From a virus: a DNA stretch of 64,000 bases. The translations under genes and the position numbers were made by a program. The stretch lies in IMG/VR virus record IMGVR_UViG_3300026097_000015, positions 37,545 through 101,544 of that record, one strand, 5' to 3'. The notes below the pieces were generated by a model. It saw only the letters and a list, made by a program, of their open reading frames with translations, made no database searches and was not told the DNA's origin. The stretch's first letter is position 1. Each line of letters starts with the position of its first letter. Shown piece by piece: positions 18,801 to 36,118 of the stretch.

Positions 18801-19008
18801 AAAAGAAAAGTCAATCAAAATACTAGAATCGTATTTTAAATTAATTAAAGAGTCTGAAGATAAGTCTGAAAATCCTGAATGGGATAGAGGATTCCAGGCA
18901 GCAATAGCATTAATAAAGTCGGAATATAATTGGAAGGATTCGTAATGGAGATATTGGCAGTATTGTCTTTAGTTGCCATGCTTTGGATAGCAGTTTGGTT
19001 TACAACTA

Positions 19009-19722
19009 ATGACAGATGATCTTTCAAACGTAGTAGCAGAAGAAGACTTTCAAACTTGGAGGATTTTTCCTAAGTATCGTAATCTTTTTAATAAGATGGA
19101 GATTGCGTTACAACAAGGCTTGAAGGCAGGACCTGCAGCGGTCAACCCTTTGCATGATGGCTACTATATTTCAAGACCTATTTATAATTTATACGGGATG
19201 GGCATAGGTGCCAAAAGGTTTTGGTACAGTGATGACATGTACAACCAATTACTTAACAATGATGTAGTTCCGCCTGGGCACTTCTGGTGTGAGTGGGTTG
19301 AAGGAGATCACCTGAGTATAGACTTTCATCGTGACCCCAAGACTAAGATATTCTACACACGCAGTGTCTGGCAGGGTAAGCATTACACAAGCGATAACCT
19401 AACACAGTTCTCGTCATGGACTAGATTAGATAGTGATATTCATCCTTACGACATTAAACTTAAACTACCCTGGAATGATGAAAAGATTACAGCAATAAAC
19501 TTAGAGTACAAAGGTAAATACGTAATAGAGGCACACCTTAGATTAGGTAATGACCCTTGGGATGACCTAGAGACTGGAACAGTAGTTACACCAGTATGGG
19601 ATGATGCAGAAATAGATCCATCCAAAGAGTTTCGGGGTAACCTTCATCAAGACATGGAAGCTTACAGTGCAAGTGGACACATATCAAATGTAAGAAAAGG
19701 ATACTACATAGATAGACCTTAA
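19009..19722 (+). CDS. ATP-grasp-like protein (tentative)
   Basis: SRPIYNLYGMGIG, WCEWVEGDHLSIDF, INLE, IEAHLR resemble ATP-grasp motifs. Confidence 0.5.
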   Translation: MTDDLSNVVAEEDFQTWRIFPKYRNLFNKMEIALQQGLKAGPAAVNPLHDGYYISRPIYNLYGMGIGAKRFWYSDDMYNQLLNNDVVPPGHFWCEWVEGDHLSIDFHRDPKTKIFYTRSVWQGKHYTSDNLTQFSSWTRLDSDIHPYDIKLKLPWNDEKITAINLEYKGKYVIEAHLRLGNDPWDDLETGTVVTPVWDDAEIDPSKEFRGNLHQDMEAYSASGHISNVRKGYYIDRP

Positions 19723-19730
19723 TTAAACAA

Positions 19731-19804
19731 GGGGTGGTAGCTCAGCTGGTTAGAGCAAACGACTCATAATCGTTCGGTCATGGGTTCAAGTTCCATCCAC
19801 CCCA
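19731..19804 (+). tRNA. tRNA(CAT), elongator Met or Ile2
   Basis: Acceptor GGGGTGG/CCACCCC, anticodon arm AACGA-CT-CAT-AA-TCGTT; no initiator GGG/CCC stem. Confidence 0.93.
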
Positions 19805-19837
19805 CTAAAACTGTAAAAGTGATACAATAGATAACTA

Positions 19838-20392
19838 ATGTATGAAATATCAATGCCAAGGTTTGAGGCAATCGTAATAAAAGATCTCATTTCAACAGCA
19901 ACAAACATTTTAGAGTATGGTTCTGGCGGTACAACTTATTACGCTTATCAAAATAATAAAACAGTAACTACAGTTGAAACAGACAAAAACTATTTAAATA
20001 ATCTTTTAGATACATGCAATCATTCAGATCTGATTAAGCCTATCCATGTAGACGTGGGGGAAACGACTGACTGGGGGTACTCTTTGGGATTGCCAGAAGG
20101 CTTCAACACAATCAGGCAATACATAAGAGTACCATGGGACATAGATGATTTTAATCTTGTCATTGTTGACGGTAGGTTTAGGGCAGCAACATTTATGTAT
20201 AGCTGGAACATGGCCAAGCCAGGGACTACCTTCTTCTGGGACGACTTCGTAAACAGAAACCACTACAAAGAAGTGCTACAGCATATTAACCCTGATGCAT
20301 ATGTTGGCAGGGCAGCTATATTCGTAAAAGAAGATAATTACTTTAAGTTCAGCGACGAAATGATTCATAAATACGTTAGTGATCAGCGTTAA
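19838..20392 (+). CDS. Class I SAM-dependent methyltransferase-like protein (glycan O-methyltransferase type)
   Basis: ILEYGSGGTT, TVETD, LVIVDGRFR, FWDD. Confidence 0.7.
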   Translation: MYEISMPRFEAIVIKDLISTATNILEYGSGGTTYYAYQNNKTVTTVETDKNYLNNLLDTCNHSDLIKPIHVDVGETTDWGYSLGLPEGFNTIRQYIRVPWDIDDFNLVIVDGRFRAATFMYSWNMAKPGTTFFWDDFVNRNHYKEVLQHINPDAYVGRAAIFVKEDNYFKFSDEMIHKYVSDQR

Positions 20393-20424
20393 AGCGAAGC
20401 GATAAAGTTCGGCGGTAAATAGAG
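20392..20424 (+). repeat. Left arm of 34-bp imperfect inverted repeat (partner 36085-36118)
   Basis: AAGCGAAGCGATAAAGTTCGGCGGT-AAATAGAG; 28/34 identical to the reverse complement of the partner. Confidence 0.7.
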
Positions 20425-20443
20425 TGCAATACAATCGAAACGA

Positions 20444-20472
20444 TTGACAAACTCTAATATCAGATGTATAAT
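20444..20472 (+). promoter_or_regulatory. Consensus SigA promoter
   Basis: TTGACA-N17-TATAAT. Confidence 0.85.
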
Positions 20473-20477
20473 ATATT

Positions 20478-20550
20478 CAGCATAGGCAATAGCTGAGCTA
20501 GAGGCCCTAGGGGAGTTTCGGACGAAGCTCTTCTAGGGTTCTCGTTATTT
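20478..20550 (+). ncRNA. Candidate two-hairpin small RNA or leader
   Basis: TCAGC/GCTGA hairpin, then ~18-bp stem with five G-U pairs. Confidence 0.45.
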
Positions 20551-20570
20551 AGATTTAGAAACGGTATAAA

Positions 20571-20765
20571 ATGGAAACAGCAATAACCACAGATGTAGAC
20601 ACAACAGTCTTCTATACAAAAGAAGATGTACAAGGATGGACTGTAGTAAAGAAATGTACAGAATGTAAGTTTGCAGTTTTCACTGGCAAGTCACAAGATG
20701 TAGATAAGTCTACTAAAACTATCAATGATATATTTGATAAAGGTCACAACTGCATAATTTTTTGA
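20571..20765 (+). CDS. Hypothetical protein (CxxC...HxC)
   Basis: ORF track. Confidence 0.55.
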   Translation: METAITTDVDTTVFYTKEDVQGWTVVKKCTECKFAVFTGKSQDVDKSTKTINDIFDKGHNCIIF

Positions 20766-21090
20766 GGGTCTACAACATAAGCATAGACAAATTCATACTC
20801 AATTGATGTATAGCAAGAATACCTATAAGAACACCAACTAATCTAAACCAAAAAAGAAATACGGGATTGGCCCTAATCTTTTCTTCTAGGTTTATATAGG
20901 AATATAGAAAACCTAAGATCAAACCTAATAGTGCAAATTCTGTCATATTCTAGTGTAACACACATAAATCTTTTGAAGGCTACGCCTTTATACCAAGATG
21001 ATTTGTTACCCTCGCAGAATTGATTCTATGGCTTCTGAGAGCTATTTTATAGCCATCGTAATGAAATAATATCTTACTGATTATAAAGCT

Positions 21091-21130
21091 ATGTGGAGGG
21101 AAGTGGAGTTATGTGGAGATATATGGATAA
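21091..21130 (+). repeat. Four 10-bp phased units (aTGTGGAG-like)
   Basis: atgtggaggg aagtggagtt atgtggagat atatggataa in AT-rich non-coding DNA. Confidence 0.6.
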
Positions 21131-21738
21131 TGGAACACATAGTTATAAAACCGTAATCAAAATTTTATATCTCCATAGCCCCATATCCTATATAATGCTA
21201 AAACAGTCTGGGATTTCAAAAGCTTCATCGTAATGTCTTTTTGGGAGATAGTGTTTATATATAGGGGGATAATTACCAAGATAGGTAAATTTTATACCCT
21301 CAAAAAATATAAATAAATCTAATAAAATAAACAAAAATAAATAAAAATAGATCAAAATGTTTTAAAAATAAAGAAAATGTTTTATTCTCTTATAGGGGGT
21401 ATTAACGTATAATGGTTAACCAATATATGATATACATACCTAGTGTAAGTACTATACCTTCCAGCATTTTATACCCTCCTTCGTAATAAATAATAAATTA
21501 ATTAATAATGCCTACGGCATCTGTTATAAAATTTGGGGTATACCAACAGATAACCCATTAAGTGTTAATATACCTATACATATAATACATATACTAGATT
21601 AAGATCATATACCCTGGATGTTACATACATGTTAAATAGTTTTATTATAGATATACTAAAACAACCAGCGATTTCAAAAGGTCCATCGTAATACTTTTTA
21701 AACTAAATAGTTTTTAATATAGGTCATGCTCGATGCAT

Positions 21739-21814
21739 AAAAAAAAGAAGCTGGATAGCTAGTTCATAGCCACATCGCAATGACGTTAGCTAGCTTGCAC
21801 CTATCCAACTTCTA
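21739..21814 (-). ncRNA. Candidate small RNA with own promoter and terminator
   Basis: TTGACA-N17-TATAAT at 21849-21821; stem AGAAGTTGGATAG/CTATCCAGCTTCT followed by a T-tract. Confidence 0.6.
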
Positions 21815-21992
21815 TACATAATTATATCCTATATAGCCCAGGATGTCAAGTTGATCATCGTAATACCCTCAAAACAACCCACGATTTTATATGATCCATC
21901 GTAAAGGTTTTTATATATGGGATATGGTAACATTTTGATAACTTTGGGTCGATCACAGAATACCCCCTTTTGTCAAGGGGGTATAAACTTTA

Positions 21993-22271
21993 CTAGTCTG
22001 TGTCAGTGATATCTAGATACTTGTTGTGAAGATTGAGAATACCTGATAACTCGTTATCTGTTAGAGAGTCTAATGTCATTTTCTCTAGGGCAATAAAAAA
22101 GCATAGGCTAGTGTATAGGTTGTTCTCATAGAGAAATGTCCTATACACATCTGGCGTATAAACAACTTCCTCGTCACCCCAAAACTGTTCTTCAAGGTCA
22201 AGTGTAAATCTGTTTAGAGTGTCTGCTATATCGTATAACTCGGACATTTCTTCTTCGGTGTATTTTGTCAT
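21993..22271 (-). CDS. Hypothetical acidic protein (leaderless start MTKY)
   Basis: ATG 7 nt after the -10 of an AAATGTCC promoter. Confidence 0.65.
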   Translation of the reverse strand: MTKYTEEEMSELYDIADTLNRFTLDLEEQFWGDEEVVYTPDVYRTFLYENNLYTSLCFFIALEKMTLDSLTDNELSGILNLHNKYLDITDTD

Positions 22272-22301
22272 ATCTAAAACCCTATCATATCCTATGGACA
22301 T

Positions 22302-22586
22302 TTATTCCATACTCCTAGCTAGTAGGTCATCAAGCACATCATACCCTTCATCCTCTAGACCTAATGCAGCCAACAGCAGGTCAAAGGTTTCATCAATAAA
22401 GGTATTTGCTTCTTTGTTTCCTGAAACAATCTTTTCACTTAGTAAATATGCAAGGGGTAGCCCTAAGTCATTGTATTCAATAAAGTCTGAAAAATCAGCG
22501 TCTGCCCGATAATTCATCCATAGGTCTGCTAGGATGCCGCACTTGTCATTGAAAGTCGTCTGTCCTGTATTGTCTGAACCGCTCAT
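22302..22586 (-). CDS. Hypothetical protein
   Basis: ILADLW...DFIEYNDLGLPLAY. Confidence 0.7.
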   Translation of the reverse strand: MSGSDNTGQTTFNDKCGILADLWMNYRADADFSDFIEYNDLGLPLAYLLSEKIVSGNKEANTFIDETFDLLLAALGLEDEGYDVLDDLLARSME

Positions 22587-22791
22587 CTATATCATCACTC
22601 AATTCTTCTCTTGCTGTTTCTTGGTTTGTCTTTGCGTAGTAGGCACTATCCGCTATTTCCTGTAACCTGTTGTAGTTTATAGTTGGCTTATGCCTAGCTA
22701 TATAAACTCCTACTTGGTCTAGGTCTAATCGCAAATCAGAAAGCATATCAGCCATTTTGCCTGCTACCTGTTCTTCTCTGCTTTTTCTCAT
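22546..22791 (-). CDS. Hypothetical protein
   Basis: GGAGG SD; LSDLRLDLDQVG. Confidence 0.7.
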   Translation of the reverse strand: MRKSREEQVAGKMADMLSDLRLDLDQVGVYIARHKPTINYNRLQEIADSAYYAKTNQETAREELSDDIDERFRQYRTDDFQ

Positions 22792-22815
22792 ATACCTCCG
22801 TATTCTATTATCTCA

Positions 22816-22866
22816 TAAAAAGGTGATGGGGGCAAGGGGAAAGTAGGAATACCCTCAACCCCACCA
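22816..22866 (-). terminator. Intrinsic terminator with loop UAUUCCUACUUUC
   Basis: 15-bp GC-rich stem plus T-tract just after the stop at 22870. Confidence 0.75.
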
Positions 22867-22869
22867 ACT

Positions 22870-23301
22870 CTAATAGACCATTCTGGGGTCTAAATCTTCA
22901 ATGTACTTGGGAAGCGTCTCTAGGAATTCTAGTATCCTAAGTGACAAACGGTCTTTATAATTTGCCATGAACGTATCTAAATCAATAAAGCCATCTAGTC
23001 CAAAGTCAAGCCAACCGTCCATGCTTATTTGTTCTAACATACTGTGGTTCTTGGGGTCCTGTGTTTTCTTTGCCCAGTCAACTAGGCCAATTGCCTCAGC
23101 TTCCTTTGTAAGAAGAGTAATTGTATAATCAGTATCCATTATAGGAAGAGGTGACTGTTGCCATACACGTGCATTAATCATCCACAGGTCCTGGTCCCAG
23201 AATGTATCCTCACCATACCATTGCTCAGGACACCATACATTAAGGTCCCAGTCAATCTTTGTTTTAGTTTTGTTCTTGTTACGAATCATTGTTGCTGTCA
23301 T
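22870..23301 (-). CDS. Hypothetical protein
   Basis: ATG overlapping the upstream stop, GGAGGG SD. Confidence 0.65.
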   Translation of the reverse strand: MTATMIRNKNKTKTKIDWDLNVWCPEQWYGEDTFWDQDLWMINARVWQQSPLPIMDTDYTITLLTKEAEAIGLVDWAKKTQDPKNHSMLEQISMDGWLDFGLDGFIDLDTFMANYKDRLSLRILEFLETLPKYIEDLDPRMVY

Positions 23302-23489
23302 TTCTTTCCCTCCAAGGTAGGCTCTTCTTCTTCTGGTAGCCAGAAAACTTCTTCTGTCCATCCCCACTTCACTATGCCATCTATATATACAGCATCATAT
23401 GCTTTGGCCTTAGCTTCTTCGGGGGAGTCTGCTTCAACCTCAGTCATCCCCCACTCAATACGTTTTACATATACTTCATATGTACTCAT
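23298..23489 (-). CDS. Small protein with VEADSxEEA motif
   Basis: AAGGAG SD. Confidence 0.7.
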   Translation of the reverse strand: MSTYEVYVKRIEWGMTEVEADSPEEAKAKAYDAVYIDGIVKWGWTEEVFWLPEEEEPTLEGKK

Positions 23490-23640
23490 GATGTCTCCTT
23501 TGCATATTCAAGCAACAACCTGATGTGATGCACTATTTGTTCTGGGGATAGGTCTTCTCTCTCAATGTATTCGTATACACGGTCAAGCACCTCTCCATCT
23601 GTCGTTTCGCTATTCATTGTAAAAATATCTGCGTAATTCA

Positions 23641-24087
23641 TTATGCATTCTCCTCTGCATATAGTTTTGCTTCAGGGTCTTCTGGTGATACAGGTCGCAA
23701 CCCATACCCCTCACAATCTGAACAGTCAGGGTCACCTTCGTCATTGCTTTCATCAAAGCAGTGGCACTCAATGTCTAATGACAATACCACAACCTCGCTA
23801 GAATCTTTCCACGGTATCTCACAGACATAGTAACCTAGTCTATCTACAATACCAATACCTGGAACCAATAGCAAGGACATCTCTCCCTGAACCATTGTCC
23901 AAACATAGTGGTTGTCTTTAGATAAGACATAGTCTAATTCTTCACCATAGGTTTCAAACATTAGTTCATTGCCTGTAACAAGGTGGTTCTCTTGTGGCTT
24001 GAACCGCTCTTCCCATTCGCTCTGAGTCATCTCATATGCATCTAGATTGATGACATCGTCCATATCCCAATTGCCATTGTCATTCAT
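23641..24087 (-). CDS. Hypothetical protein with FETYGEE motif and C-terminal Cys cluster
   Basis: GAAAGTAGG SD. Confidence 0.75.
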   Translation of the reverse strand: MNDNGNWDMDDVINLDAYEMTQSEWEERFKPQENHLVTGNELMFETYGEELDYVLSKDNHYVWTMVQGEMSLLLVPGIGIVDRLGYYVCEIPWKDSSEVVVLSLDIECHCFDESNDEGDPDCSDCEGYGLRPVSPEDPEAKLYAEENA

Positions 24088-24203
24088 TATTTACCTACTT
24101 TCTTCTTTACATACTTCACAATGATAGTTATCTGTTTGGGGGTAGTAGTCTAACACTCTATCCTCCATACAGCAATCACAAACATCTAATATCATACCCA
24201 CTC

Positions 24204-24734
24204 CTAGTGATGAAAGTCTACAGGAACAATGTACCAGTTGTCAACACCAGCCTCAATGCTTTCACGAACAACTGAGGGGTAAGTTATCTCATTGATGATA
24301 TCAAAGAAAAAACTGTGATAGTTCCAGCTAGCTCCTGCTATGTTTGCTAATTTAGTTAGGGGGTATAAAGCAATACTAGAATGGTAATCAGGATACAATC
24401 CTTCTTTATTATTCTCTATATTATCTAATATCTGAGGTAAGTCTATCTCCCTAGATTGGTCTAATGCTCGTCCCAGCTCTGCTAAGTGATACTCATGAGC
24501 CTTGATTAGATACTCATGAAACTTGGGGTCGTCTTGATGTGCTACATCACCAACATACTTACTGTCGTAAGGCTTATCACTACTACTCCAGCGTCCACCA
24601 CCTGTAACAAACCAGTCATACCATGTATTGATGATTTCACTGTCGCCCATTTGCATATTGAGAAATGCTTCAACATCTCCATGTGCCTCCTCTGCACTGT
24701 CAGCCTGTGTGGCTACATATTGAATTACGTGCAT
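24204..24734 (-). CDS. Hypothetical protein (WYDWFVTGGGRW, VPVDFH motifs)
   Basis: GAAAGTAGG SD. Confidence 0.75.
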   Translation of the reverse strand: MHVIQYVATQADSAEEAHGDVEAFLNMQMGDSEIINTWYDWFVTGGGRWSSSDKPYDSKYVGDVAHQDDPKFHEYLIKAHEYHLAELGRALDQSREIDLPQILDNIENNKEGLYPDYHSSIALYPLTKLANIAGASWNYHSFFFDIINEITYPSVVRESIEAGVDNWYIVPVDFHH

Positions 24735-24774
24735 AGATTTCCTACTTTCTATTTGTTGTCAGCCTACCAGTTAT

Positions 24775-25119
24775 TTATACGTTTGTCAAGCTGTTTGCGT
24801 ATTCTTCTACAAAATGCTCAAAGTCAAAAACGATACTGTGATATGTAACAGTATTATTAGTGAAGTCAGCTGACAAGGTGTCATAGCTTTCTTCTCCAGC
24901 CTGATAGCTGGTTAGTCCAAAACCTGTTTCACTAGTCCACTCATTACCAATCAGCTGCGAGACTACGATACGGATTGCATAGGGAACATCTCCCCAACGT
25001 GGCTCTGCTTTTTGCAGGGCATATGCAAAGTCTCTAACCTTACTATCCCCACCCCAGTGTGAGTATAGCCATACGCTACCTTTTTCATCTTTCAATTCAA
25101 AATTAGTTCTTGCTCCCAT
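24775..25119 (-). CDS. Hypothetical protein (MGAR...LYSHWGG motif)
   Basis: GAAAGTAGG SD. Confidence 0.75.
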   Translation of the reverse strand: MGARTNFELKDEKGSVWLYSHWGGDSKVRDFAYALQKAEPRWGDVPYAIRIVVSQLIGNEWTSETGFGLTSYQAGEESYDTLSADFTNNTVTYHSIVFDFEHFVEEYANSLTNV

Positions 25120-25131
25120 GATTCCTACTTT

Positions 25132-25314
25132 CTATTTGTCTTCTACATATCCTAGTGCAACTCCACAGGAATTGCAAGTCTCAGGGGTATAAAGTTCAAC
25201 AGCTCCATACCATCCATTATAGTAATCAGAGTCCTTCGCACAAAAATCTGAACAATAGTATTCATAGTCTAATACGTCACCCTGTTTATCTTCAATCAAT
25301 GCTATATGAGCCAT
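25132..25314 (-). CDS. Small zinc-finger-like protein
   Basis: YCSDFC...CNSC; first gene after a promoter. Confidence 0.7.
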   Translation of the reverse strand: MAHIALIEDKQGDVLDYEYYCSDFCAKDSDYYNGWYGAVELYTPETCNSCGVALGYVEDK

Positions 25315-25665
25315 ACCTCTACCTTTCTCTGATACTCAGAGCCTATCACATGGTATGGACATTTACAAGTAGAAGTCCAGGATTTTCCAGGATTTTTCTT
25401 AATGCTTCGTAAATGTTTATTTATCTTTATATATATATGAATAAATTTGGGGTCGATCCCAGAAAAAGAAAAAGGAGGCCGAAGCCTCCCCTTTCCCATC
25501 AACCAACCTTATTTATCCTTATACTTCTCATACTGCCTTTTACGCAATTCGTTTTGAATTTTGATATCCCTGAATGTTTCAGATGCCTTGGCAAATTGAG
25601 ATGCCCCAATCGCAAACATTATCAAAGGTGCAAATATAAATAGCAATATAATTAGAAACTCCATA

Positions 25666-25959
25666 TTACGCCTCTACCCTATCCAAAATCTCAACTTCTA
25701 GGGTAGGTCTAATATCACTAACCATATAGTCAAGAATGTCATCAACAGCTTTGTCTAGGAAGTATTCTTCCAACATAGACCTAGTTAGTTCATGACCATT
25801 AGCTAATACAGTTTTGATATGCTCATCATCATCTATGTAGTATTCTAATGCTAGGTTTACCTTTGCTACCCTTTCGGTTCTAAACATCTCCAAAAGATTC
25901 CTCCCTAATGTTGCTTGCGGTTTTGGTATCGCCATCAAGGATAGCTGATACATAGTCAT
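25666..25959 (-). CDS. Hypothetical protein (true start probably downstream)
   Basis: ORF track; overlaps upstream gene. Confidence 0.5.
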   Translation of the reverse strand: MTMYQLSLMAIPKPQATLGRNLLEMFRTERVAKVNLALEYYIDDDEHIKTVLANGHELTRSMLEEYFLDKAVDDILDYMVSDIRPTLEVEILDRVEA

Positions 25960-26230
25960 ATCTATTGTTTTCGTGCATATTTACAATATCATCCCATTGG
26001 TCAGCTGTCAAGTTATCAGGCTCAAATTGTCTGACATCCCCTTGACCATAGTCACCATCAGCGGTAACCCAAGCATTGCTTTTGATAGCAACTTCTAGCA
26101 AATGTTCGTGAGCGTCTATGATACCCTCCAGATAATTCTCGTGAGAAGCGTCTGTTGTGTTATCAAGCTCATTCTTGAAATCTCTTAGTCTGTTGTTTAT
26201 ATATTGAATCATTTGTGTGCCTCTTTCCAT
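25880..26230 (-). CDS. Hypothetical protein (start probably 26212)
   Basis: GAAAGAGG SD before MIQY. Confidence 0.65.
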   Translation of the reverse strand: MERGTQMIQYINNRLRDFKNELDNTTDASHENYLEGIIDAHEHLLEVAIKSNAWVTADGDYGQGDVRQFEPDNLTADQWDDIVNMHENNRYDYVSAILDGDTKTASNIREESFGDV

Positions 26231-26345
26231 ACATCTGTCTTTTGGACTGCCTCTTCTCCAAATACCTCTGATAGCTCTCTCAGGGCATCTTGGAATCCGT
26301 GGAAGTATCCTCTGTCATATAGTTCTTCTAGTATTTCAAGCTTAG

Positions 26346-26534
26346 TCATCTTGCGTTCACTCCATATTTCTGTGTAAGCGTTGTCTTTATTTGTTCCATC
26401 CTACCAGTTAGCACGGACACTGAATGCATACTTAGGTCTTTGATACAACTTACATCATTGTGCAAGGTTATGTATTCAAGCCTTAGACTTTTGATTGCTT
26501 CTTCTTTAGTCACAGTCAAACCCCTCTGCCTCAA
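26346..26534 (-). CDS. Hypothetical protein
   Basis: ORF track. Confidence 0.5.
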   Translation of the reverse strand: MRQRGLTVTKEEAIKSLRLEYITLHNDVSCIKDLSMHSVSVLTGRMEQIKTTLTQKYGVNAR

Positions 26535-26615
26535 AGATAGCCTCTATCTCTGTTAGTTGTTCTTCTGTCAAGTGGTCTACCTGAACGGCATCTGCAAACA
26601 TCTTTCCAAAATCCA

Positions 26616-26924
26616 TTACAATACCTCACATATACTTTCACCTTGTGCAACGAGGGAATAGAACTCATCTGACCCCTCGTCATTTGTATATACTACATCA
26701 ATAAACTTTAGATAGCAACTATTTTCGTACCAACTTCTTGCGGTATTTAGTAAGTCATATGGATTGCTATCTTTAGCTTTAATTAAATAATCATACTCAT
26801 AGTCAATCATTTGTTGGGTTTGCTTTTCATCCATCAGGATATAAACCTTGTGGCAACCCTCCCAAGCGATTGAGTCAGCTTCGTTGATTATGTTTTCCAT
26901 ACCCCACATCTCGTACTTACTCAT
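26616..26924 (-). CDS. Hypothetical protein (AWEGCHKVY, WYENSC.LKFI)
   Basis: GAGGAGG SD before MSKY. Confidence 0.7.
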   Translation of the reverse strand: MSKYEMWGMENIINEADSIAWEGCHKVYILMDEKQTQQMIDYEYDYLIKAKDSNPYDLLNTARSWYENSCYLKFIDVVYTNDEGSDEFYSLVAQGESICEVL

Positions 26925-27004
26925 CTTCTTCCTCCTCATACATGTCATAACAGCGTTTACATTCACCAAACCAAATGTCTGGTATTTGGGTTACCCCACA
27001 GGTT

Positions 27005-27211
27005 TTACAGGTAGTTAGAAGACTGCTCATCTTCTTCGTCCTTTAGCATTTCATCGTGTTCTGCATTTTGGTATGTTTCAAAACTAAATAAGTCTTCATC
27101 ACATTCAGGGCATTGAGCATAGTATCCCTCTGATACATCCTCAAAGGAAGTGGGAGCTCCACAACGAGCGTGTCTAAGCTTAGGTTCAGTCTTCATCATC
27201 ATCTGATTCAA
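27005..27211 (-). CDS. Small zinc-ribbon protein
   Basis: HARCG...CPECDEDL. Confidence 0.6.
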   Translation of the reverse strand: MNQMMMKTEPKLRHARCGAPTSFEDVSEGYYAQCPECDEDLFSFETYQNAEHDEMLKDEEDEQSSNYL

Positions 27212-27350
27212 TCTCCTCTACCTGAATGTCGTCAACACCTACATACATACAGTTCTGGTCATAGATTGCCAACTGCTCTGCTTCTTCTGCGGAATCAGCC
27301 TCAATCTCTCCAGAGAACTCTACCGTCATATTCACTATAAATCTAGCCAT
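27186..27350 (-). CDS. Small protein with IEADSAEEA motif (missing from ORF track)
   Basis: Promoter plus GAAAGTAGG SD; MARFIVNMTVEFSGEIEADSAEEAEQLA. Confidence 0.7.
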   Translation of the reverse strand: MARFIVNMTVEFSGEIEADSAEEAEQLAIYDQNCMYVGVDDIQVEEIESDDDED

Positions 27351-27390
27351 TAGACTTCCTACTTTCTTGTTGGTTGATTGTAGCCTAGCA

Positions 27391-27747
27391 CTAAGCTAGG
27401 ACATTTTGTTCAATACCCTCTACCTGATTTTGCCATAGTGACAAGTTTGCACGGTAACGGTCATTGTAAGTACCAATAAGGTTTTCAAGTGTAATAGTAT
27501 TCTCAGAGATACAACGCTTTGCTTGTTCTAGTGTGATATCTCTTGAAAGATATGTAAACCCATTGTCTAGCATTACATTAGACTTATTCTCGTATTCATC
27601 TTCATCAAAGAACCAGCCTACACCCTCATCCATAACAAGGGCAGGGCCTCTGCCTGTGATAAGAAAAGCGGTAGGGACAAGAGTCAACTCATCATCTAAC
27701 CCTAGTTCAATCTTTACAAGCTCTGAATCTAACATTGGAAATTCCAT
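27391..27747 (-). CDS. Hypothetical protein
   Basis: Promoter plus AGGAGG SD. Confidence 0.75.
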   Translation of the reverse strand: MEFPMLDSELVKIELGLDDELTLVPTAFLITGRGPALVMDEGVGWFFDEDEYENKSNVMLDNGFTYLSRDITLEQAKRCISENTITLENLIGTYNDRYRANLSLWQNQVEGIEQNVLA

Positions 27748-27904
27748 TTATTCCTCCTTGGTTGATATGATTACACTACCATAGGGCATGGACATTTAAG
27801 TTCAAAACTCCAGGATTTCAAAATCTTCTTCGTAAAGAACAAATAATGTTTAACTAACTAAAAAGTTTGGTCGACCCCAGTATTCCAGATCAGGAATATG
27901 GGAA

Positions 27905-27932
27905 GGGCAGTTTATTCTCATGCCCAGGAGAA
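27905..27932 (-). other. 3'-UTR H-type pseudoknot, copy 1
   Basis: UUCUC-CU-GGGCA-U-GAGAA-UAAAC-UGCCC. Confidence 0.65.
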
Positions 27933-27937
27933 GTAGG

Positions 27938-28945
27938 TTATACGCCTACTGTTTCCCTAACAATCGCCATTAGACGATTCTTTTCTGCATTCACCATTGG
28001 GTCAAACCCTGATGCTGATGCATAGATTGATTCGCTGTTACCACCACGTGCTTTGCGGTACCAGTCTAGACGCTCAGTCATACCGTTCAACGCACCCCAA
28101 GCTGTTCCAGCAATGGTGTTGTTATATTCTCCAGTATAGATAGACTGTAGCATGTCAACTTTGGTTGTGTGCTTTTTGATGGACCCCTTGGAGTCTTTCT
28201 CTGGAGCAGGGTATGCCTTAGCTACAATCTGGTCAAAGGTATTCTTGCTAATCTCAGTTTCAATTAGTTTCTGAGCAAGCAATTGGAATTCGTCAATGTA
28301 GGCATTGGCTAGGCCTAGGGCTTCACGAGCTGCTTGCACCTTACCCTGAGCGGTTTGAGTGTGACGAATCTTGAATGACTGCTTGACACCTTTACGACCT
28401 TTACCAAGTACCAAGTTCAAAGTGTTAGCACAAACAACACGTACAGGAGTAACGGATGCCTGAATAGCAACTGAGCCATCGTGGCTAGTGTTTACTAGTA
28501 GATAGTTGTTGACCTTGTCAGATACGCCATTAGGGTCCAGAACCGTTTCACGCTCTAGGGCTAGTGAACCAAACACCTGACGTCCGCCCTTGATGGAGCC
28601 AGCAGTTTCCCAACGTCCTCCATCCAGCATGGCATCGCCAAATTCAAACAGGTCTTCATTCTGCAATGGAACATAACGCTCACCAACAACACCTAGGATG
28701 TCGTTCTGGCTACGGTCAAATGGGTTAGTACGTGTAACAAAGGAGTAACCCTTGTCAGATGAAAAGTTTTCGGGTACAGGAACTTCTTCCAAGCGGACGT
28801 TCCAGTCATTTAGGTTAGCAAGCTTTAGCATCTCTGCTGTAGACACTTCTTCATTGAACACTGTACCAAGCTTGTGCCAGGCAGGCTCTCTGAATGATGC
28901 AAAGGTAGCTTCGCCAGTTTCTGATAATTCTAATTCGTGGGCCAT
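27938..28945 (-). CDS. DUF932 / TIGR03299 phage-plasmid protein
   Basis: MAHELE..WHKLG, LGVVGERYVPLQN, WETAGS..GGR, NTSHDGS, TPVRVVCANTL, IRHT. Confidence 0.88.
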   Translation of the reverse strand: MAHELELSETGEATFASFREPAWHKLGTVFNEEVSTAEMLKLANLNDWNVRLEEVPVPENFSSDKGYSFVTRTNPFDRSQNDILGVVGERYVPLQNEDLFEFGDAMLDGGRWETAGSIKGGRQVFGSLALERETVLDPNGVSDKVNNYLLVNTSHDGSVAIQASVTPVRVVCANTLNLVLGKGRKGVKQSFKIRHTQTAQGKVQAAREALGLANAYIDEFQLLAQKLIETEISKNTFDQIVAKAYPAPEKDSKGSIKKHTTKVDMLQSIYTGEYNNTIAGTAWGALNGMTERLDWYRKARGGNSESIYASASGFDPMVNAEKNRLMAIVRETVGV

Positions 28946-29168
28946 GAGGTCCTTCTTTCTGCTAGGGGATGTTTACATGTATAATCTAACACAGGGGTAG
29001 GACATTTTGCAAGGTCTTCGTAAGACTTTCTTAAAGTATTTTATTACAAATTGGTAACAGCGGGTCGACCCTAGATTGATCCAAATGTCAAGGATAAAGC
29101 AAACCCCCTAGACTACACTTGGTCAGAAAAGCTTTCCATAGCTTCCCTTTTTCATCTAGGGGGTAGGC

Positions 29169-29195
29169 GGGTAGTTTAGAGAGATACCCAGCTCC
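29169..29195 (-). other. 3'-UTR H-type pseudoknot, copy 2
   Basis: GGAG-CU-GGGUA-U-CUCU-CUAAAC-UACCC. Confidence 0.65.
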
Positions 29196-29200
29196 AGTCA

Positions 29201-29650
29201 TTACAGAATTTCCATAATTGCCCCATAGGTGGAGGCACTTACTTCTTCCTGTGAAGTCATTTTGAGAATGTTTAGGTTCTTCTCAAGCAGTGACTTTCTA
29301 GTAGTGTAGTCACGACCAAAATGAGATTTCTGGTTTGGTCGCTCTGGCTCGTTTGGCTCTCTAGGAAAGTCCTCAATGTAATCAACATCAAAGGATACCT
29401 CAAACCTGTTGCCATAGTGACGGGACAAACGAATTGGGTCAGTATATTCATAGCCAATGCCGTTGCTGTTTGTCTTTAGATAGTTAGACACAAACGCAAT
29501 TACATCTTTCTTGTATTGCTCTTTCTCTGCCTCATACTGCTTACGCTTGGCAGGGTATTCAGCCTCTGCCTTTTCAATCTCAGCAATCTTGCTTTCAATC
29601 TCAGCAATTAGTTTTGCTACTGGAACTTTTACGCTAATGTTTCTTGCCAT
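29201..29650 (-). CDS. Hypothetical coiled-coil protein
   Basis: GAAAGTAGG SD. Confidence 0.8.
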   Translation of the reverse strand: MARNISVKVPVAKLIAEIESKIAEIEKAEAEYPAKRKQYEAEKEQYKKDVIAFVSNYLKTNSNGIGYEYTDPIRLSRHYGNRFEVSFDVDYIEDFPREPNEPERPNQKSHFGRDYTTRKSLLEKNLNILKMTSQEEVSASTYGAIMEIL

Positions 29651-29773
29651 TATGAAATCCTACTTTCATTATTAGTTTTGTTTTTGATTGTTAGGGGGTG
29701 AACTAGGGGAAAGCGTTCATTTCGGCTACCTCTACTATGGGCTTTCATTAAGGATAGCGAACCTAGTTCTAGT

Positions 29774-29802
29774 GGGGCAGTTTTGTGTGATACCCCAGCA
29801 CA
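29774..29802 (-). other. 3'-UTR H-type pseudoknot, copy 3
   Basis: UGUG-CU-GGGGUA-U-CACA-CAAAAC-UGCCCC. Confidence 0.65.
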
Positions 29803-29812
29803 ATAGGTTAGA

Positions 29813-29968
29813 CTACTTTTTGATAACAGTAGTCCAGCGAGGCTCGCCATTTACATCTAGGCGAACTCTGAATGTTCCATTTTTGTTGGCAACTACTTCT
29901 TGAATAGTGCCTGTAACACCACTCTTAGCGGTGGTGAACTGTGAGCCAACAGTTAGTGTGTTTTCCAT
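29813..29968 (-). CDS. Small SH3/KOW-like beta protein (51 aa, missing from ORF track)
   Basis: MENTLTVGSQFTTAKSGVTGTIQEVV...RVRLDVNGEPRWTTV; promoter plus AAGGA SD. Confidence 0.7.
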   Translation of the reverse strand: MENTLTVGSQFTTAKSGVTGTIQEVVANKNGTFRVRLDVNGEPRWTTVIKK

Positions 29969-30089
29969 TTTGCTTCCTTACACCTGCTCTACGACAGGAT
30001 TTGTTTCTGGTTTATCTTGTAGTCGTTTTTGCTACAAGAGTTATCTTAGCACAGGCTATGGACATTTATCAAGCCTGTTTAGTAACAAA

Positions 30090-30353
30090 TTAGTAACGCT
30101 CTATAAACGCTTCTAAGTTGTATGCGTCAATTATTTCTAGGACAGTAGCATAGCCTCTGCCTCTAAAAGATACGCCATCAGGCAAGCCAATTTTGCTTTC
30201 CTCGTCATAGGCGTTGCAAAGTTCAATAGCTCTCTTTATACTATCAAACATCATATCTGGAATTGGGGGGTAGGAATTTGCTTTCATATGCCACTGAATA
30301 GCATTGTCAATATCTGTATGCTCCAACATATCTACTGCTGATAGGTATCCCAT
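30090..30353 (-). CDS. Hypothetical protein (WHxxxNxYPP motif)
   Basis: Own promoter and SD. Confidence 0.75.
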   Translation of the reverse strand: MGYLSAVDMLEHTDIDNAIQWHMKANSYPPIPDMMFDSIKRAIELCNAYDEESKIGLPDGVSFRGRGYATVLEIIDAYNLEAFIERY

Positions 30354-30404
30354 TACTTCCCGCTTTCGTTTGTTGTGATTAGCTTAGCATATGGTATGGA
30401 CATT

Positions 30405-30563
30405 TTAGGCTTCTTCTGCCTCGCCAATATACCATTCGCCTTCTTCGCCATCATTGATTAGATTAGCTCTGCTTAGATATTTATTGGCTTTGGCATATGC
30501 CTCTTCCTCGTTGTTTGCTAAAATGCTAACGAATCCGTCATAGTTGATGGTATATCTAGTCAT
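30405..30563 (-). CDS. Small protein with ANNEEEA motif (missing from ORF track)
   Basis: Own promoter plus GAAAGTAGG SD. Confidence 0.7.
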   Translation of the reverse strand: MTRYTINYDGFVSILANNEEEAYAKANKYLSRANLINDGEEGEWYIGEAEEA

Positions 30564-30607
30564 TACTCCTACTTTCTTTTTTGTAGCCTATCATATGGGG
30601 TGGACAT

Positions 30608-30802
30608 TTATAGAAACTCAAAAGGGTCTCTATCTTGAAAAATTTCTTCCCACGCCTCTAGGTTATAGTTTTGTGGATTCTGATAGTATTCGCCAAGTGC
30701 TTCTTTGATTTCTTCTGCTTGCTCATCCATCATTTCTACTTTCTCTAATAGCCTTATTATTGTTAGACTGCCTTGTGCCTTTATACTTCTTGGGAGTTTC
30801 AA
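30608..30802 (-). CDS. Small acidic protein (true start probably at MMDEQ)
   Basis: GAAAAGTAG SD before the internal ATG. Confidence 0.5.
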   Translation of the reverse strand: MKLPRSIKAQGSLTIIRLLEKVEMMDEQAEEIKEALGEYYQNPQNYNLEAWEEIFQDRDPFEFL

Positions 30803-31021
30803 CCTTATGCTTGGCTTTCAACATATTATGGAATAGCTCTTTGGCTTCCGCTTTTCTTCTAGCTTCGTTTCGCTTGCCTAGCATTTGGTTTCTCCCTTCT
30901 TGTTTATACTGTTACCCTATCACACCCTATGGACATTTATGAGGGCATCCAAGCAAAATCTTCTAACATTATTTCTGCCATATATATTGTTTCTTCTAAT
31001 TCTATTTCATCCATTGCTGAC

Positions 31022-31294
31022 TCATAAGACATTTATTGCCTCTTGCCTCTCGTTATCCCAAATTGCTATTTGGTTGTGCAGCTTAGCAAAAGATAAAGCC
31101 TTTGTCAAGTCAGCGAATAAAATTGACTTATCATAATAGGTTTTATTTGTCTTAGGGTCAGTCCATACTCCTAAATATTCACCTTCCCCAATTTCTTGAG
31201 GGGTAGTTTCCTCAAAAGCAACCCAATACCCTTTACTAGTCTGAACAGGAAAAAACCCTGCCTCTGCGTCTGCTTTATATGTTCCATCTCTCAT
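31022..31294 (-). CDS. Hypothetical protein (LGVWTD...YYD.S, A..FA...NQIAIWD)
   Basis: Leaderless start after an AAATGTCC promoter. Confidence 0.75.
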   Translation of the reverse strand: MRDGTYKADAEAGFFPVQTSKGYWVAFEETTPQEIGEGEYLGVWTDPKTNKTYYDKSILFADLTKALSFAKLHNQIAIWDNERQEAINVL

Positions 31295-31566
31295 AGGTAT
31301 AACCTATCACATACCTAGGACATTTTGCAAGATTTTTCCACGATTTCGTAAAACGTTTCGTAAAAGATATACATGGGCCGATATGGATCGACCCCCACAT
31401 TCCAGATCTGGCATAGACAGCCCCTCCCTAAAAGGGAGGAGTGTCACCAGGGCTATACATCTTCAGCCTATCATTCTCATCTTGGAGTTTTAGATTCCAA
31501 AAAGCTAATACCATAGTTGTGAAGCTCATTATGCCAAGGGCAATAAAGGCAAACATCAAAAGGTTC

Positions 31567-31752
31567 TCAAGCATCTACATTCTCCTCTGCGAATACTGCT
31601 TTCCAAAAGCGTGACTTGTCAAAGCGTGGGTTATCTTTCAACATCATATCCTGAAAGTCCATAACCATAAACGCCGCTTTTTCGTGGGGTAGCTCACTCT
31701 TGTATTGTCTCAAAATACTAGCTACTTCAATATAGTCTTTTCTTGTCATCAT
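31567..31752 (-). CDS. Small protein (MTRKDY...DNPRFD..RF motif)
   Basis: Coupled ORF; motif familiar from phage early genes. Confidence 0.75.
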   Translation of the reverse strand: MMTRKDYIEVASILRQYKSELPHEKAAFMVMDFQDMMLKDNPRFDKSRFWKAVFAEENVDA

Positions 31753-32039
31753 TAGATTAGTTCCTGTTCTTTAGCTTCGGTTGTATCCATCATTCCATCA
31801 TATTCAAAACACTCAGGGCATACAGTGGTTCCCTTTGGGTAGTATCCATAGCAATATACGCATACAGCCCCGTTCTCCTCATCTTCCCTGATTTTCTCAA
31901 GGGCTTCAAAATAAAACCTGCTTAGGGTTTCATCAGGAACGTGAGCATAGAGCTTGCCTAGTAGGTGATGAATACCCATATTCCCATAGGCTTCCTCATA
32001 GATTTTACGAGCCTCGGTTACTGTTGGAATTGTTGACAT
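31752..32039 (-). CDS. Hypothetical zinc-ribbon protein
   Basis: CVYC...CPEC; own promoter. Confidence 0.7.
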   Translation of the reverse strand: MSTIPTVTEARKIYEEAYGNMGIHHLLGKLYAHVPDETLSRFYFEALEKIREDEENGAVCVYCYGYYPKGTTVCPECFEYDGMMDTTEAKEQELI

Positions 32040-32092
32040 ATTAGTTTTCCTTTCTTGTTTATATAGTTAGACTAGCATAGGGGGTGGACATT

Positions 32093-32242
32093 TTAGTCCG
32101 ATAAAATCCAGTTCATATAGTCCATTGGTGACAGACTTTCCAGGTAGCACTTACGGCAAGCTGGATTAGAGCCAATAACTCTCATTGAAGCAATAGAGAC
32201 GCTGACACGGCAGACTGAGCAAGAGGTGTAGTGTTTGGTCAT
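32093..32242 (-). CDS. Small zinc-finger protein
   Basis: CSVC...CRKC; AGAAAGG SD. Confidence 0.65.
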   Translation of the reverse strand: MTKHYTSCSVCRVSVSIASMRVIGSNPACRKCYLESLSPMDYMNWILSD

Positions 32243-32399
32243 TAGTTGGCCTTTCTTGGTTGATGGCTTTAGCCTAACACAGGGGTAGGACATTTATCCA
32301 GGATTTCGTAAACCACTTCGTAAATAAAATGTAACGGTTTGATAACAGCGGGTCGACCACAGAACCTCACCCCTGTCAAGGGGTGGGGCTGCTAAGGGG

Positions 32400-32648
32400 C
32401 TATGCCCTAATCTCGTCTAGGATTTGCTGGATAGCCTTCTCCCTAGGGGTGTAGAAAGGGACCTCACTTTTGCCATCTGCTGACCAGATGACCTCCTCAG
32501 TGTCATCTTGAACAATGAACTTGGGGTCCTCGTTGAAGTGGCGGAACACGTTGATAATCTCAGTGGTAAGCTCGTTGCCATCAAAGGTCCTGGTGTCAAT
32601 GGTGTCGCCATATAGGTCCAAAGCTCTAAAAGTGTAATCGTTGTTCAT
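32400..32648 (-). CDS. Hypothetical protein
   Basis: Own promoter, GGAGG SD. Confidence 0.75.
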   Translation of the reverse strand: MNNDYTFRALDLYGDTIDTRTFDGNELTTEIINVFRHFNEDPKFIVQDDTEEVIWSADGKSEVPFYTPREKAIQQILDEIRA

Positions 32649-32814
32649 AGGTTTTCCCTCCGTTGGTTGACAGCTTCAGCTTAGCATATACCCTGGACAT
32701 TTATCCACGATTTCATAAACTTCTTCGTAAATTGTTTGTTGTGATCCAAATGTTATATTCGGGAGTCGATGCATATTCCAGGGAGGGAATACAAGCCCCC
32801 TCCCCAAGAATACA

Positions 32815-33333
32815 TCAGTAGGCAGAACCCCTGAACACTATCCAGATAAGGGCTTGAGCTACTCTAGGTGTTAGACCGTGTTCATTGCCTGCTTCGGTTA
32901 CGGCGTTAGCCATCTGAGCATACTGAGACTGAGTAGGTGTTTTACCTTCTATGCCTAATGCTCTCATCATCCAAACATCTATCACAACCGCATTAGCGTC
33001 ACCAGCAATAGCTTTAGCAAAGGCATTAGTCTTCAATCCCTTGAGGGCGTCAAACCCTAGCTCTAGGGAGTTGTTAGCCATTCGCAAGTTGTTACCTAGA
33101 CCCCTGACCTCTTTGCCTAGTGAGAATGCGATAGACTTCTCAACGTTAGTTGACCAACGCTCTCTAGGTGAGAATGAGGAGACTACGCTTGCCCCAACTT
33201 CCAGGGTAGTGTCTAGGTTGTCTGCCACCTTGTTAGCAATCTTCTCAGCGTCAAGATACCAAGTAGCTGCTTGCTCCACTTGACCAAGGGTAGCCCTAGC
33301 AATTATCTCTGAGTAAGTTTCTTTATAGTTCAT
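32815..33333 (-). CDS. Helical protein resembling the HhH DNA-glycosylase superfamily (tentative)
   Basis: WY...SP...W..N, GLKT..F, VVIDVWM.R, QALIW. Confidence 0.5.
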   Translation of the reverse strand: MNYKETYSEIIARATLGQVEQAATWYLDAEKIANKVADNLDTTLEVGASVVSSFSPRERWSTNVEKSIAFSLGKEVRGLGNNLRMANNSLELGFDALKGLKTNAFAKAIAGDANAVVIDVWMMRALGIEGKTPTQSQYAQMANAVTEAGNEHGLTPRVAQALIWIVFRGSAY

Positions 33334-33482
33334 TAGTTGACCTTTCTTATTTATACAATCTAACATATGCTATGGACATTTATCGTAAAAAGTCCACGAT
33401 TTTTTCCACGATTTCTTAATTATCATCGTAACGTTTTATGATCGTTGCCACCGACTTTTGATAGTCTGAAGTCGGTAGCCAG

Positions 33483-33515
33483 TTATCCACAGGCTGTGTA
33501 TAACCTTGTGGATAA
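33483..33515. promoter_or_regulatory. Three DnaA boxes
   Basis: TTATCCACA (33483), TGTGTATAA (33495), TGTGGATAA (33507). Confidence 0.75.
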
Positions 33516-33523
33516 CTAGGTAG

Positions 33524-33637
33524 CTACTTGATGAGTAGCCAAAAGGAATAGGCAAGTATTCCAAACATTCCAAATACCAAAACAACATCTGGCAAACCTG
33601 GAATTATGTATTGAGCGTTTTCTGGAATGATGGTCAT
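33524..33637 (-). CDS. 37-aa membrane peptide (missing from ORF track)
   Basis: Promoter variant plus GAAAGTAGG SD; single TM helix. Confidence 0.55.
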   Translation of the reverse strand: MTIIPENAQYIIPGLPDVVLVFGMFGILAYSFWLLIK

Positions 33638-34374
33638 TAGTGATACCTACTTTCTACTTGATACAAGAACACTATCACAACCCCTAGACATTATGGCAGA
33701 CACGCCCGCAAAAAAAAATAAAAAAAGTTTATTTATTTTAGTAAAAATGCCGTTAAATGTCCTACCCCTATGCTAGTATCTAAGTATAGATAAAAGAAAG
33801 GAGTTCAAATGATGAACTTACTAATTGGAAATGATTACGGATACTGCGAGATTTGTGATAACCACACGCCTCGCACAACAGCAGAAGGTGAAATCTGCTG
33901 TGAGTATTGCTGGGATGCTTATGGTGAAATAAACTAAGCGTTACCATTCCGTTATAAAAATCGGGAATAAAAATAACTAAAAATTTGTTGTACTAAGTAA
34001 GAACTAAAAAAGAAAGTAGGTATAAATATGAAATTCAATTTCAGTTGTAGAATTTGCGGTTTAGGATACAGCCAAGTATCTGAAACTGGCTATAAAGCTA
34101 ATTGCCAATGTAGGCGTGTTAGCTAAATAAATGTCCAGGGTATGTGTTAGTATCTAATTAGAAATAGAAAGTAGGAATTATGACAATCGCATTCATCAAG
34201 ACTTCAGACAAGACAGTAACTCACTACGCCTCTTTTGACGCTGAAACGCCAATTGAAGCTAAGAAGATTACTGATTACTATTGGGCAGAAGTTCGCAAGG
34301 GTAACATCTATGGTTTCTCAGTTATCTGAGAATTCCATAACACGAATAGCTAATAAATAGAAAGTAGGAAATAT

Positions 34375-34629
34375 ATGAGAAAAATTGAGTTCAAAGTTAC
34401 TGAGAATGGTTGGATTACTAGCAACGCTGAGCGAGCTAGGTCAATACCAGCCTCAAGAACTGAATGTAAAAAGTGTGGCTATGTTCTAAAAGCTATACTT
34501 CCATCAGACTTATGGAATAGATACTGGAAAGAAAATCACAATTGCCAAAGTAGGCAAGCTAGCCGTCAGGCATTTGACGGTATGCTAGGTAGCCCTATGG
34601 ATACCCTAGCTAACCTAAGTATTCGCTAA
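34375..34629 (+). CDS. Hypothetical protein (CxxC...HxC)
   Basis: GAAAGTAGG SD; followed by a terminator. Confidence 0.7.
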   Translation: MRKIEFKVTENGWITSNAERARSIPASRTECKKCGYVLKAILPSDLWNRYWKENHNCQSRQASRQAFDGMLGSPMDTLANLSIR

Positions 34630-34633
34630 TAGG

Positions 34634-34662
34634 AATGCCACCCACTAGGGTGGCATTTTTTT
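34634..34662 (+). terminator. Intrinsic terminator
   Basis: AATGCCACCC-acta-GGGTGGCATT plus T-tract. Confidence 0.85.
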
Positions 34663-34917
34663 AGCGGTATGGCGTACGGGTAACTAGTAAAAACAAATAG
34701 ACTTTGGGCATACGGGTTAGGCGGTATATTCCAAAAAGATGCCACTATGCCATAGGGTCATCATAAACATATATCAGACCTGGCATACGTGCTCACTGAT
34801 TTTTTCTTTTTATATTCTATATTTAGTGCATCATACACGATCAAACATTTCTGTAATTATGTCAAAACTGTATCTGAATTTTTTATAGTATCTGAAATTT
34901 TATGTTAAAATAGTTTT

Positions 34918-35445: not shown

Positions 35446-35505
35446 TTTTTCAGATCAGCAAGATATATAGCTGAACATCATTTTCAATAGTGATTTATGG
35501 GCAAT

Positions 35506-35679
35506 TTAGGTATTATCACTTTGCAATGCTACAGAATCTAGCAAGGTAACTTCTCTATCACTAATAAATCCACCTTTTTCATCTAATTTTGCTCTAGCCT
35601 CTTCTTCGCTGGTAGCTAGAACTTGCAAAACCATACTTACTTGGTATGTATATGCATGTGTAGTTGGTTTTTCTGACAT
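35506..35679 (-). CDS. Small protein with LATSEEEA motif
   Basis: AGGAGA SD before MSEK. Confidence 0.65.
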   Translation of the reverse strand: MSEKPTTHAYTYQVSMVLQVLATSEEEARAKLDEKGGFISDREVTLLDSVALQSDNT

Positions 35680-36084: not shown

Positions 36085-36118
36085 CTCTATATCACCGACG
36101 AACTTTACCGCCTTGCTT
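36085..36118 (-). repeat. Right arm of 34-bp imperfect inverted repeat (partner 20392-20424)
   Basis: Reverse complement reads AAGCAAGGCGGTAAAGTTCGTCGGTGATATAGAG. Confidence 0.7.

Follow-up and report, generated by a model that had tools for sequence, protein, structure and literature searches.

Why would an uncultured phage carry, between two genes of its early-type region, an RNA hairpin whose open loop is the exact complement of an unusual ribosome-binding sequence used by ten of its own genes? The preliminary description of this locus reported a minus-strand terminator with a 15-bp stem and a 13-nt loop antisense to a private ribosome-binding site (RBS) of ten genes, and it inferred that a 3'-end RNA pairing in trans with this shared site might shut off a whole class of early genes while being mismatched to ordinary sites. 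We examined a window of 64,000 nt, which is part of a 101,544-bp IMG/VR phage record (IMGVR_UViG_3300026097_000015) of about 40% G+C with five tRNA genes. The observation proved to be real. In the 78-nt gap between two minus-strand genes, the minus strand folds into 8 bp, a 1x1 U.C mismatch and 6 bp, i. e. 14 pairs over 15 positions rather than 15 bp, that close the 13-nt loop UAUUCCUACUUUC and are followed by CC and five U. Three of the pairs are G.U, so the hairpin is better on this strand than on the other, and the same hairpin was found independently in a hairpin scan. The complement of the loop, GAAAGTAGG, occurs 11 times in the window against 0.64 expected, and none of 100 shuffles reached 11. 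These are the only copies in the whole genome and all of them lie within 12 kb; ten are followed by an ATG after 4-8 nt (T-type RBSs), and the eleventh is the loop itself. The longer matches of 11-12 nt that had been claimed for five of the sites (24741, 25124, 27358, 34167 and 34360) are correct. The motif is, however, not strictly private, as a subset of related phages shares it. The positions of all features are listed in the table.

Positions of the hairpin, of the T-type RBSs and of further features in the window and in related IMG/VR loci (L numbers)
Position	Strand	Feature	Details
22824..22866	-	Hairpin HP3	5' arm 22866-22852, 13-nt loop 22851-22839, 3' arm 22838-24
22839..22851	-	Loop UAUUCCUACUUUC	Reverse complement of GAAAGTAGGAATA, that is, the SD variant plus the first spacer bases
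22814..22823	-	Tail CCUUUUUAUG after the stem	Weak U-tract; terminator function plausible but not shown
22807..22835	-	Promoter-like site for the downstream 81-aa gene	TTGCCC inside the 3' arm, 17-nt spacer, then TG-n-GATAAT
22870..23301	-	Upstream gene, 143 aa, no known family	Stop codon 3 nt before the hairpin
22546..22791	-	Downstream conserved 81-aa gene	Ordinary GGAGG RBS, not a match to the loop
24094..24102	-	T-type RBS (GAAAGTAGG) of gene 23641-24087	6 nt before the ATG
24741..24749	-	T-type RBS of gene 24204-24734	Behind TTGACA-17-TAGGCT; matches the loop over 11 nt
25124..25132	-	T-type RBS of gene 24775-25119	Matches the loop over 12 nt
27358..27366	-	T-type RBS of gene 27186-27350	Behind an AATGTCY-N11-TAKNNT cassette
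29659..29667	-	T-type RBS of gene 29201-29650	
30568..30576	-	T-type RBS of gene 30405-30563	Behind a promoter cassette
33646..33654	-	T-type RBS of gene 33524-33637	Behind a promoter cassette
34012..34020	+	T-type RBS before the ATG at 34028 (32-aa ORF)	On the divergent plus-strand unit
34167..34175	+	T-type RBS of gene 34180-34329	Matches the loop over 12 nt; behind a promoter cassette
34360..34368	+	T-type RBS of gene 34375-34629	Matches the loop over 11 nt
22279-34153	-, +	14 promoter-like cassettes AATGTCY-N11-TAKNNT	12 on the minus strand, 2 on the plus strand at the divergence point near 33.7 kb
27938-28945	-	phrog_1221 gene	335-aa protein
20947-21992		1-kb non-coding stretch where transcription converges	Perfect TTGACA-17-TATAAT promoters at 21849-21821 (-) and nearby at 20444-20472 (+); long predicted structures
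11580 (-), 41263 (+), 41929 (+), 60180 (+)		Examples of gene starts	TATAAT-like hexamer 6-8 nt before the ATG and no SD
L029:8069-8138, L011:14831-14906 and the same place in about 17 relatives		Hairpins HP1 and HP2	Absent from the window
L004:8372-8405, L005:8529-8562, L011:8406-8441, L015:7609-7648; L010:742-782, L023:642-680, L029:297-337 and 2148-2190; L018:9779-9816, L019:5548-5583		Further hairpin families with the same pyrimidine loop (for example TTCTTATCCTTTCTT or CTTACTTCCTTTCT)	Quite different stems; each just upstream of a promoter module
L007:229-278, L011:448-494, L018:1835-1887, L021:1296-1348 (minus strand); window about 36.6 kb		Second conserved terminator-like hairpin	Fixed loop CTCTCATACCC, long U-run; stem varies among relatives
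L035:5913-5999 (= L031:9913-9999)	-	Candidate stand-alone RNA of about 60 nt	TTGACA-18-TATCAT, 11-bp hairpin with an 18-nt anti-RBS loop, then a U-run; antisense to the end of one gene and to the RBS region of the phrog_1221 gene

The setting of the hairpin is a 12-kb stretch of small genes without known families, and neither PHROGs nor Pfam gave a function for the flanking or target genes. The genes are divided by modules that contain a hairpin and the promoter-like cassette AATGTCY-N11-TAKNNT, with TG before the -10-like part, which is found in 14 copies against 0.26 expected. Four T-type RBSs follow such a cassette and one follows TTGACA-17-TAGGCT. Predicted duplexes of the loop with the T-type leaders have a mean energy of -14.6 kcal/mol, against -5.8 for the other 44 called genes, whereas a canonical 16S tail still binds the T-type leaders at about -10.5; gene starts were taken from a crude caller of our own. 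The other intergenic hairpins of the region have ordinary loops, and none of the other early-region terminators in the window carries an anti-RBS loop, although the window also contains five or six GAAAGG-type early RBSs for which no matching loop was found. Three simple alternatives could be ruled out. First, the preliminary description had conceded that its reading would fall if the motif were the RBS of a translated plus-strand mini-ORF, but no ATG, GTG or TTG at RBS distance follows the plus-strand motif, either here or in relatives. Second, a CsrA-type GGA-loop decoy on the plus strand was rejected since GGA is not conserved, several loops reading GGT, and since the G.U pairs favour the other strand. 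Finally, a cis block of the next gene's RBS on read-through RNA was rejected because the downstream RBS is GGAGG here and does not match in relatives.

Is the hairpin an ordinary intrinsic terminator? The stem is G+C-rich, with 8 of its 14 pairs being G-C, but the loop of 13 nt exceeds the 3-8 nt that are usual for such terminators, and a consensus scan with a loop limit of 8 did not list it. The five U that follow after a 2-nt gap form only a short tract, many homologous hairpins have none, and U-less terminators are reported for Actinobacteria, to which the host may belong, so that this feature does not decide the matter in either direction. A link to actinobacteria is suggested by homologues of the phrog_1221 protein with 55% identity in the terminal repeats of Streptomyces BE-cluster phages (Samisti12 and others) and in many Mycobacterium phages, and by many genes here that look leaderless, a trait common in Actinobacteria. 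Samisti12 shares the phrog_1221 gene and a modular early region but has no anti-RBS loops, and a search of the isolate phage collection returned no close relative. The 86-nt fold is not exceptional against shuffles (z = -1.7). Thus, the weight of the case comes from the comparison with relatives and not from the folding energy.

Pattern searches with the two flanking proteins gave no direct relatives, and relatives were therefore reached through the phrog_1221 protein 5 kb upstream, which gave 32 IMG/VR loci. In these loci the same gene order holds: a 175-aa gene, a 140-aa gene, a 125-aa gene, the hairpin, the promoter and then a conserved 80-aa gene, and a hairpin sits at the same place in 20 or more of them. 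The stem differs between lineages but stays paired: Eleven of 16 predicted pairs show compensatory changes, every hairpin has 1-6 G.U pairs on the mRNA strand, where alone they occur, and none of the non-paired positions is A.C. It is therefore a sense-strand RNA structure, and selected as such. As an alignment of the hairpins alone with MAFFT misaligned the 3' arms, the pairs were counted with a script. Between the window and L029 the hairpin is 34/38 identical and the loop 13/13, while the flanking genes are 57-60% identical at the DNA level. In relatives, two more conserved hairpins, HP1 and HP2, precede the anti-RBS hairpin in the 3' UTR. The HP1 stem co-varies, whereas the HP2 loop TAAGGGGTTG is nearly invariant and its complement (AACCCC/ACCCCT) is enriched 5.6-fold in the 30 nt before gene starts in those phages; the window has neither HP2 nor such leaders.

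If the loop acts by pairing with the RBSs, the two should change together in related phages, and this had been put forward beforehand as the decisive test of the idea. The test was passed. Three loop classes occur at this site: (i) The T class, CTACTTTC, is found in the window, L029, L010 and L030, and L016 and L017 carry the same loop on a hairpin at another position. (ii) The G class, CCTTTCTT, is found in ten loci. (iii) Eight relatives carry unrelated loops, i. e. L007/8/9/28, L012, L018/19/21, and L015 and L025/26. GAAAGTAG RBSs occur almost only in the phages with CTACTTTC loops, whereas orthologous genes in G-class phages carry GAAAGA/GAAAGG-type sites. T loops find a complement of 8 nt or more in 11% of genes in T loci against 1.7% in G loci, G loops match 12.7% against 6.5%, and the loop of the distant phage L031 matches 16.7% against 1.5-6%. 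When loops were permuted among 11 representative phages, the observed fit was reached in 18 of 20,000 trials for matches of 8 nt or more and in 2 of 20,000 for 9 nt or more. The phages are related and mosaic, which the test does not fully remove, so that these figures are not true probabilities, and part of the complementarity is of low complexity, with purine-rich RBSs facing pyrimidine-rich loops. On a protein tree the T class appears in three places, and L010 carries a T loop on a stem close to that of its G-loop neighbours. A relaxed census revealed further hairpins with anti-RBS loops on unrelated stems, some of them in phages whose hairpin at this site has an unrelated loop; these are always on the mRNA strand and always 3' of the RBS-bearing genes. 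L007/8/9/28 and L012, however, show no other anti-RBS hairpin in the sampled 16-21 kb, indicating that the element is dispensable or replaced outside the sampled DNA.

To test the association out of sample, we searched all IMG/VR contigs for the loop 15-mer and obtained 62 loci. In six of these it lies in a hairpin loop: two known contigs (L072 and L107), the new pair L075/L097 with a new stem, and L094 at a contig end. Further copies of GAAAGTAGG in those loci number 8 (L075), 8 (L097), 4 (L072), 2 (L107) and 0 (L094), whereas the 56 other loci hold none, or rarely one or two. L075 has seven T-type RBSs before ATGs on one strand and, downstream on that strand, two anti-RBS hairpins, the second with a 24-nt loop and two G.U pairs. 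These data bear on the possibility that the hairpin is just a terminator or 3' stabiliser and the match is due to chance or to pyrimidine-rich loops facing purine-rich RBSs. The chance expectation for the 9-mer, the weak fold score and the unrelated loops, which show that the hairpin works without the match, would be compatible with this view, but an identical 13-nt loop sits on different stems in at least four lineages (L029, L016, L075/L097 and L094), the loop variants track their own RBSs, the out-of-sample prediction held, and a loop of 13-18 nt is unusually large for a terminator. We therefore regard this explanation as already disfavoured and very unlikely.

A distant case provides further evidence. 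L031/L035, with 35% protein identity to the phrog_1221 protein of the window, uses AAAGGGTAGC(AA) before five or six genes and has one hairpin whose 18-nt loop is the complement of that sequence, GCTACCCTTT being paired with AAAGGGTAGC. This hairpin lies on the strand opposite to the genes, behind a promoter of its own with 11 of 12 matches and a TG, is followed by a U-run and has a fold z-score of -4.4, so that it looks like a stand-alone RNA. Its 81%-identical relative L036 has neither the RBS class nor the hairpin. The variation of the loops also argues against the idea that the loop mimics the 3' tail of 16S rRNA as a decoy for a factor that binds or cuts the anti-SD. G-class loops (CCUUUCUU) do resemble the CCUCCUUUCU tail, although the rRNA of the host is not known, but T-class and L031 loops depart from it at exactly the positions where the phage's own RBS departs, for which a mimic of an invariant host sequence would have no reason. 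This reading is thus very unlikely as well.

The position of the loop next to a promoter points to another possibility, namely that the motif is a double-stranded DNA site (duplex GAAAGTAGGAAT) for a phage regulator: copies just downstream of early promoters would repress them, the inverted copy upstream of the -35 of the next promoter would activate or repress that promoter, and loop and RBS would co-vary because both follow the specificity of the protein. Indeed, the loop lies at about -38 to -50 of a promoter whose -35 is in the 3' arm and whose layout, TTGNNN-17-TGnTAnAAT, occurs in 17 of 21 relatives. Moreover, other anti-RBS hairpins also sit directly upstream of promoters, several T-type sites follow promoter cassettes, and the orientation relative to the genes differs between this group and L031. 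On the other hand, the motif keeps 4-8 nt from the ATG but 7-16 nt from the -10, it is a normal SD relative, and no copy exists outside RBSs and the loop. It is displayed in the loop of at least five unrelated stems whose G.U pairs work only on the strand that carries the anti-RBS, and in L031 that strand has its own promoter and U-run. The DNA-level reading is not excluded, but we consider it unlikely.

The simplest account is that the loop is kept complementary to a class of RBSs because the two pair as RNA. We suggest that the hairpin is an RNA element on the mRNA strand, at the 3' end of an early-type operon and directly against the next promoter, and that its oversized loop works as an antisense seed: it would base-pair over 9-12 nt with the shared SD-plus-spacer sequence GAAAGUAGG(AAU) of about ten promoter-proximal small genes, cover the Shine-Dalgarno site, keep the 30S subunit off and possibly create an RNase III substrate, as expected by analogy with icaR, RsaE/RNAIII and P1 c4. 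Since the hairpin lies 3' of its targets, it would be made with or after them, and translation of this gene class would fall in a delayed or feedback manner as the hairpin-bearing RNA, or its stable 3' fragment, accumulates. In this view, the G-to-U change in the RBS acts as a barcode: the sites still pair with the 16S tail but become the only good partners of the loop, so that ordinary AGGAG/GGAGG sites of other phage genes are spared and leaders carrying GAAAGTAGG rather than GAAAGGAGG would be repressed. The structure, the complementarity, the stem covariation, the strand asymmetry and the co-variation of loop and RBS across phages are established by our analysis, whereas it is inferred that the RNA exists as a stable species, that pairing happens in the cell, that it acts in trans and that the effect is repression, as well as that the genes are early and that the hairpin terminates transcription; there are no transcript, 3'-end or abundance data, block of initiation-complex formation was not assayed, and no experiment has tested the idea. 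The interpretation offered in the preliminary description is thus supported in part, and we consider an RNA brake on these genes to be the probable, though by no means certain, explanation.

It is also conceivable that the pairing is real but that its outcome or geometry differs from repression in trans, as in a cis 5'-3' interaction within the operon mRNA, protection or processing of the mRNA, or an action of leader RNAs on the hairpin that changes termination or read-through into the next gene. In line with this, the hairpins of the group lie 3' of, and on the same strand as, the RBS-bearing genes, and the transcript that ends at this hairpin probably starts at the TTGACA-17-TAGGCT promoter and would carry the two T-type RBSs at 24741 and 24094. 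For these two sites an interaction within one transcript is possible, but it is impossible for the three plus-strand sites, so that the location of motif and target speaks neither clearly for nor clearly against such a mechanism at this locus. The L031 hairpin, which is on the opposite strand to all its targets, cannot act in cis either. In addition, the RBS of the orthologous first gene does not match the loop in several relatives, and pairing over the SD is hard to reconcile with activation. We regard these alternatives as unlikely.

If the pairing is real, a phage can time the translation of a whole gene class with about 45 nt of RNA and a one-base change in the ribosome-binding sites, without a dedicated protein such as T4 RegA or RegB. 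This would also explain why some phage gene blocks carry odd, uniform SD variants, it would give gene finders and phage engineers a readable mark of co-regulated early genes, and it would offer a natural, orthogonal RBS/antisense pair for synthetic control of translation. It is tempting to speculate, although we regard this as somewhat less likely than not, that phages of this group, and perhaps many others, use private Shine-Dalgarno barcodes on a class of early genes together with co-evolving hairpin loops that read them, which would give an RNA-only, class-specific translational switch. With different stems at different genome positions displaying the same loop, and one distant phage having turned the hairpin into a stand-alone 60-nt sRNA gene, this would be a modular and widespread regulatory device that no RNA-family catalogue lists.

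Base-pairing RNAs that occlude ribosome-binding sites are known, but no description of this element was found in the literature searched, and comparison with Rfam 15 gave no meaningful match, to P1/P7 c4 RNA or to any other family, in window 19000-37000 or at the L029 element, the best hits being chance miRNA models far below threshold. In the icaR mRNA of S. aureus, a UCCCCUG motif in the 3' UTR pairs with the SD region, which blocks the initiation complex and creates an RNase III substrate (PMC3868564). As here, a pyrimidine-rich motif in a 3' untranslated region is complementary to a Shine-Dalgarno region, but icaR is one mRNA acting on itself, whereas here one loop matches about ten genes, three of them on the other strand, and the matched SD is a non-canonical variant that co-evolves with the loop across phages. 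The UCCC-loop sRNAs of Staphylococcus, RsaE and the RNAIII hairpin loops, share with our element an unpaired C/U-rich loop motif that is conserved while the helices vary and that is complementary to the SD region of several mRNAs; in their case, binding prevents formation of the initiation complex (PMC2790875). Those are host sRNAs aimed at canonical SDs, whereas this is a phage 3'-end hairpin aimed at a barcoded SD variant of the phage's own genes, without any sequence or Rfam relationship. T4 RegB and RegA achieve a class-wide shut-off of early-gene translation at the SD or initiation region, but both are proteins, a nuclease and a repressor, respectively, whereas the effector proposed here is an RNA loop. 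Finally, the c4 antisense RNA of phages P1/P7 is a phage RNA with short loop sequences complementary to the ribosome-binding region of a phage mRNA, and loop-target pairs differ between related phages (reviewed in PMC12197685). While c4 controls a single target, ant, for immunity in temperate phages, the element described here would act on a whole class of genes in a lytic-type early region.
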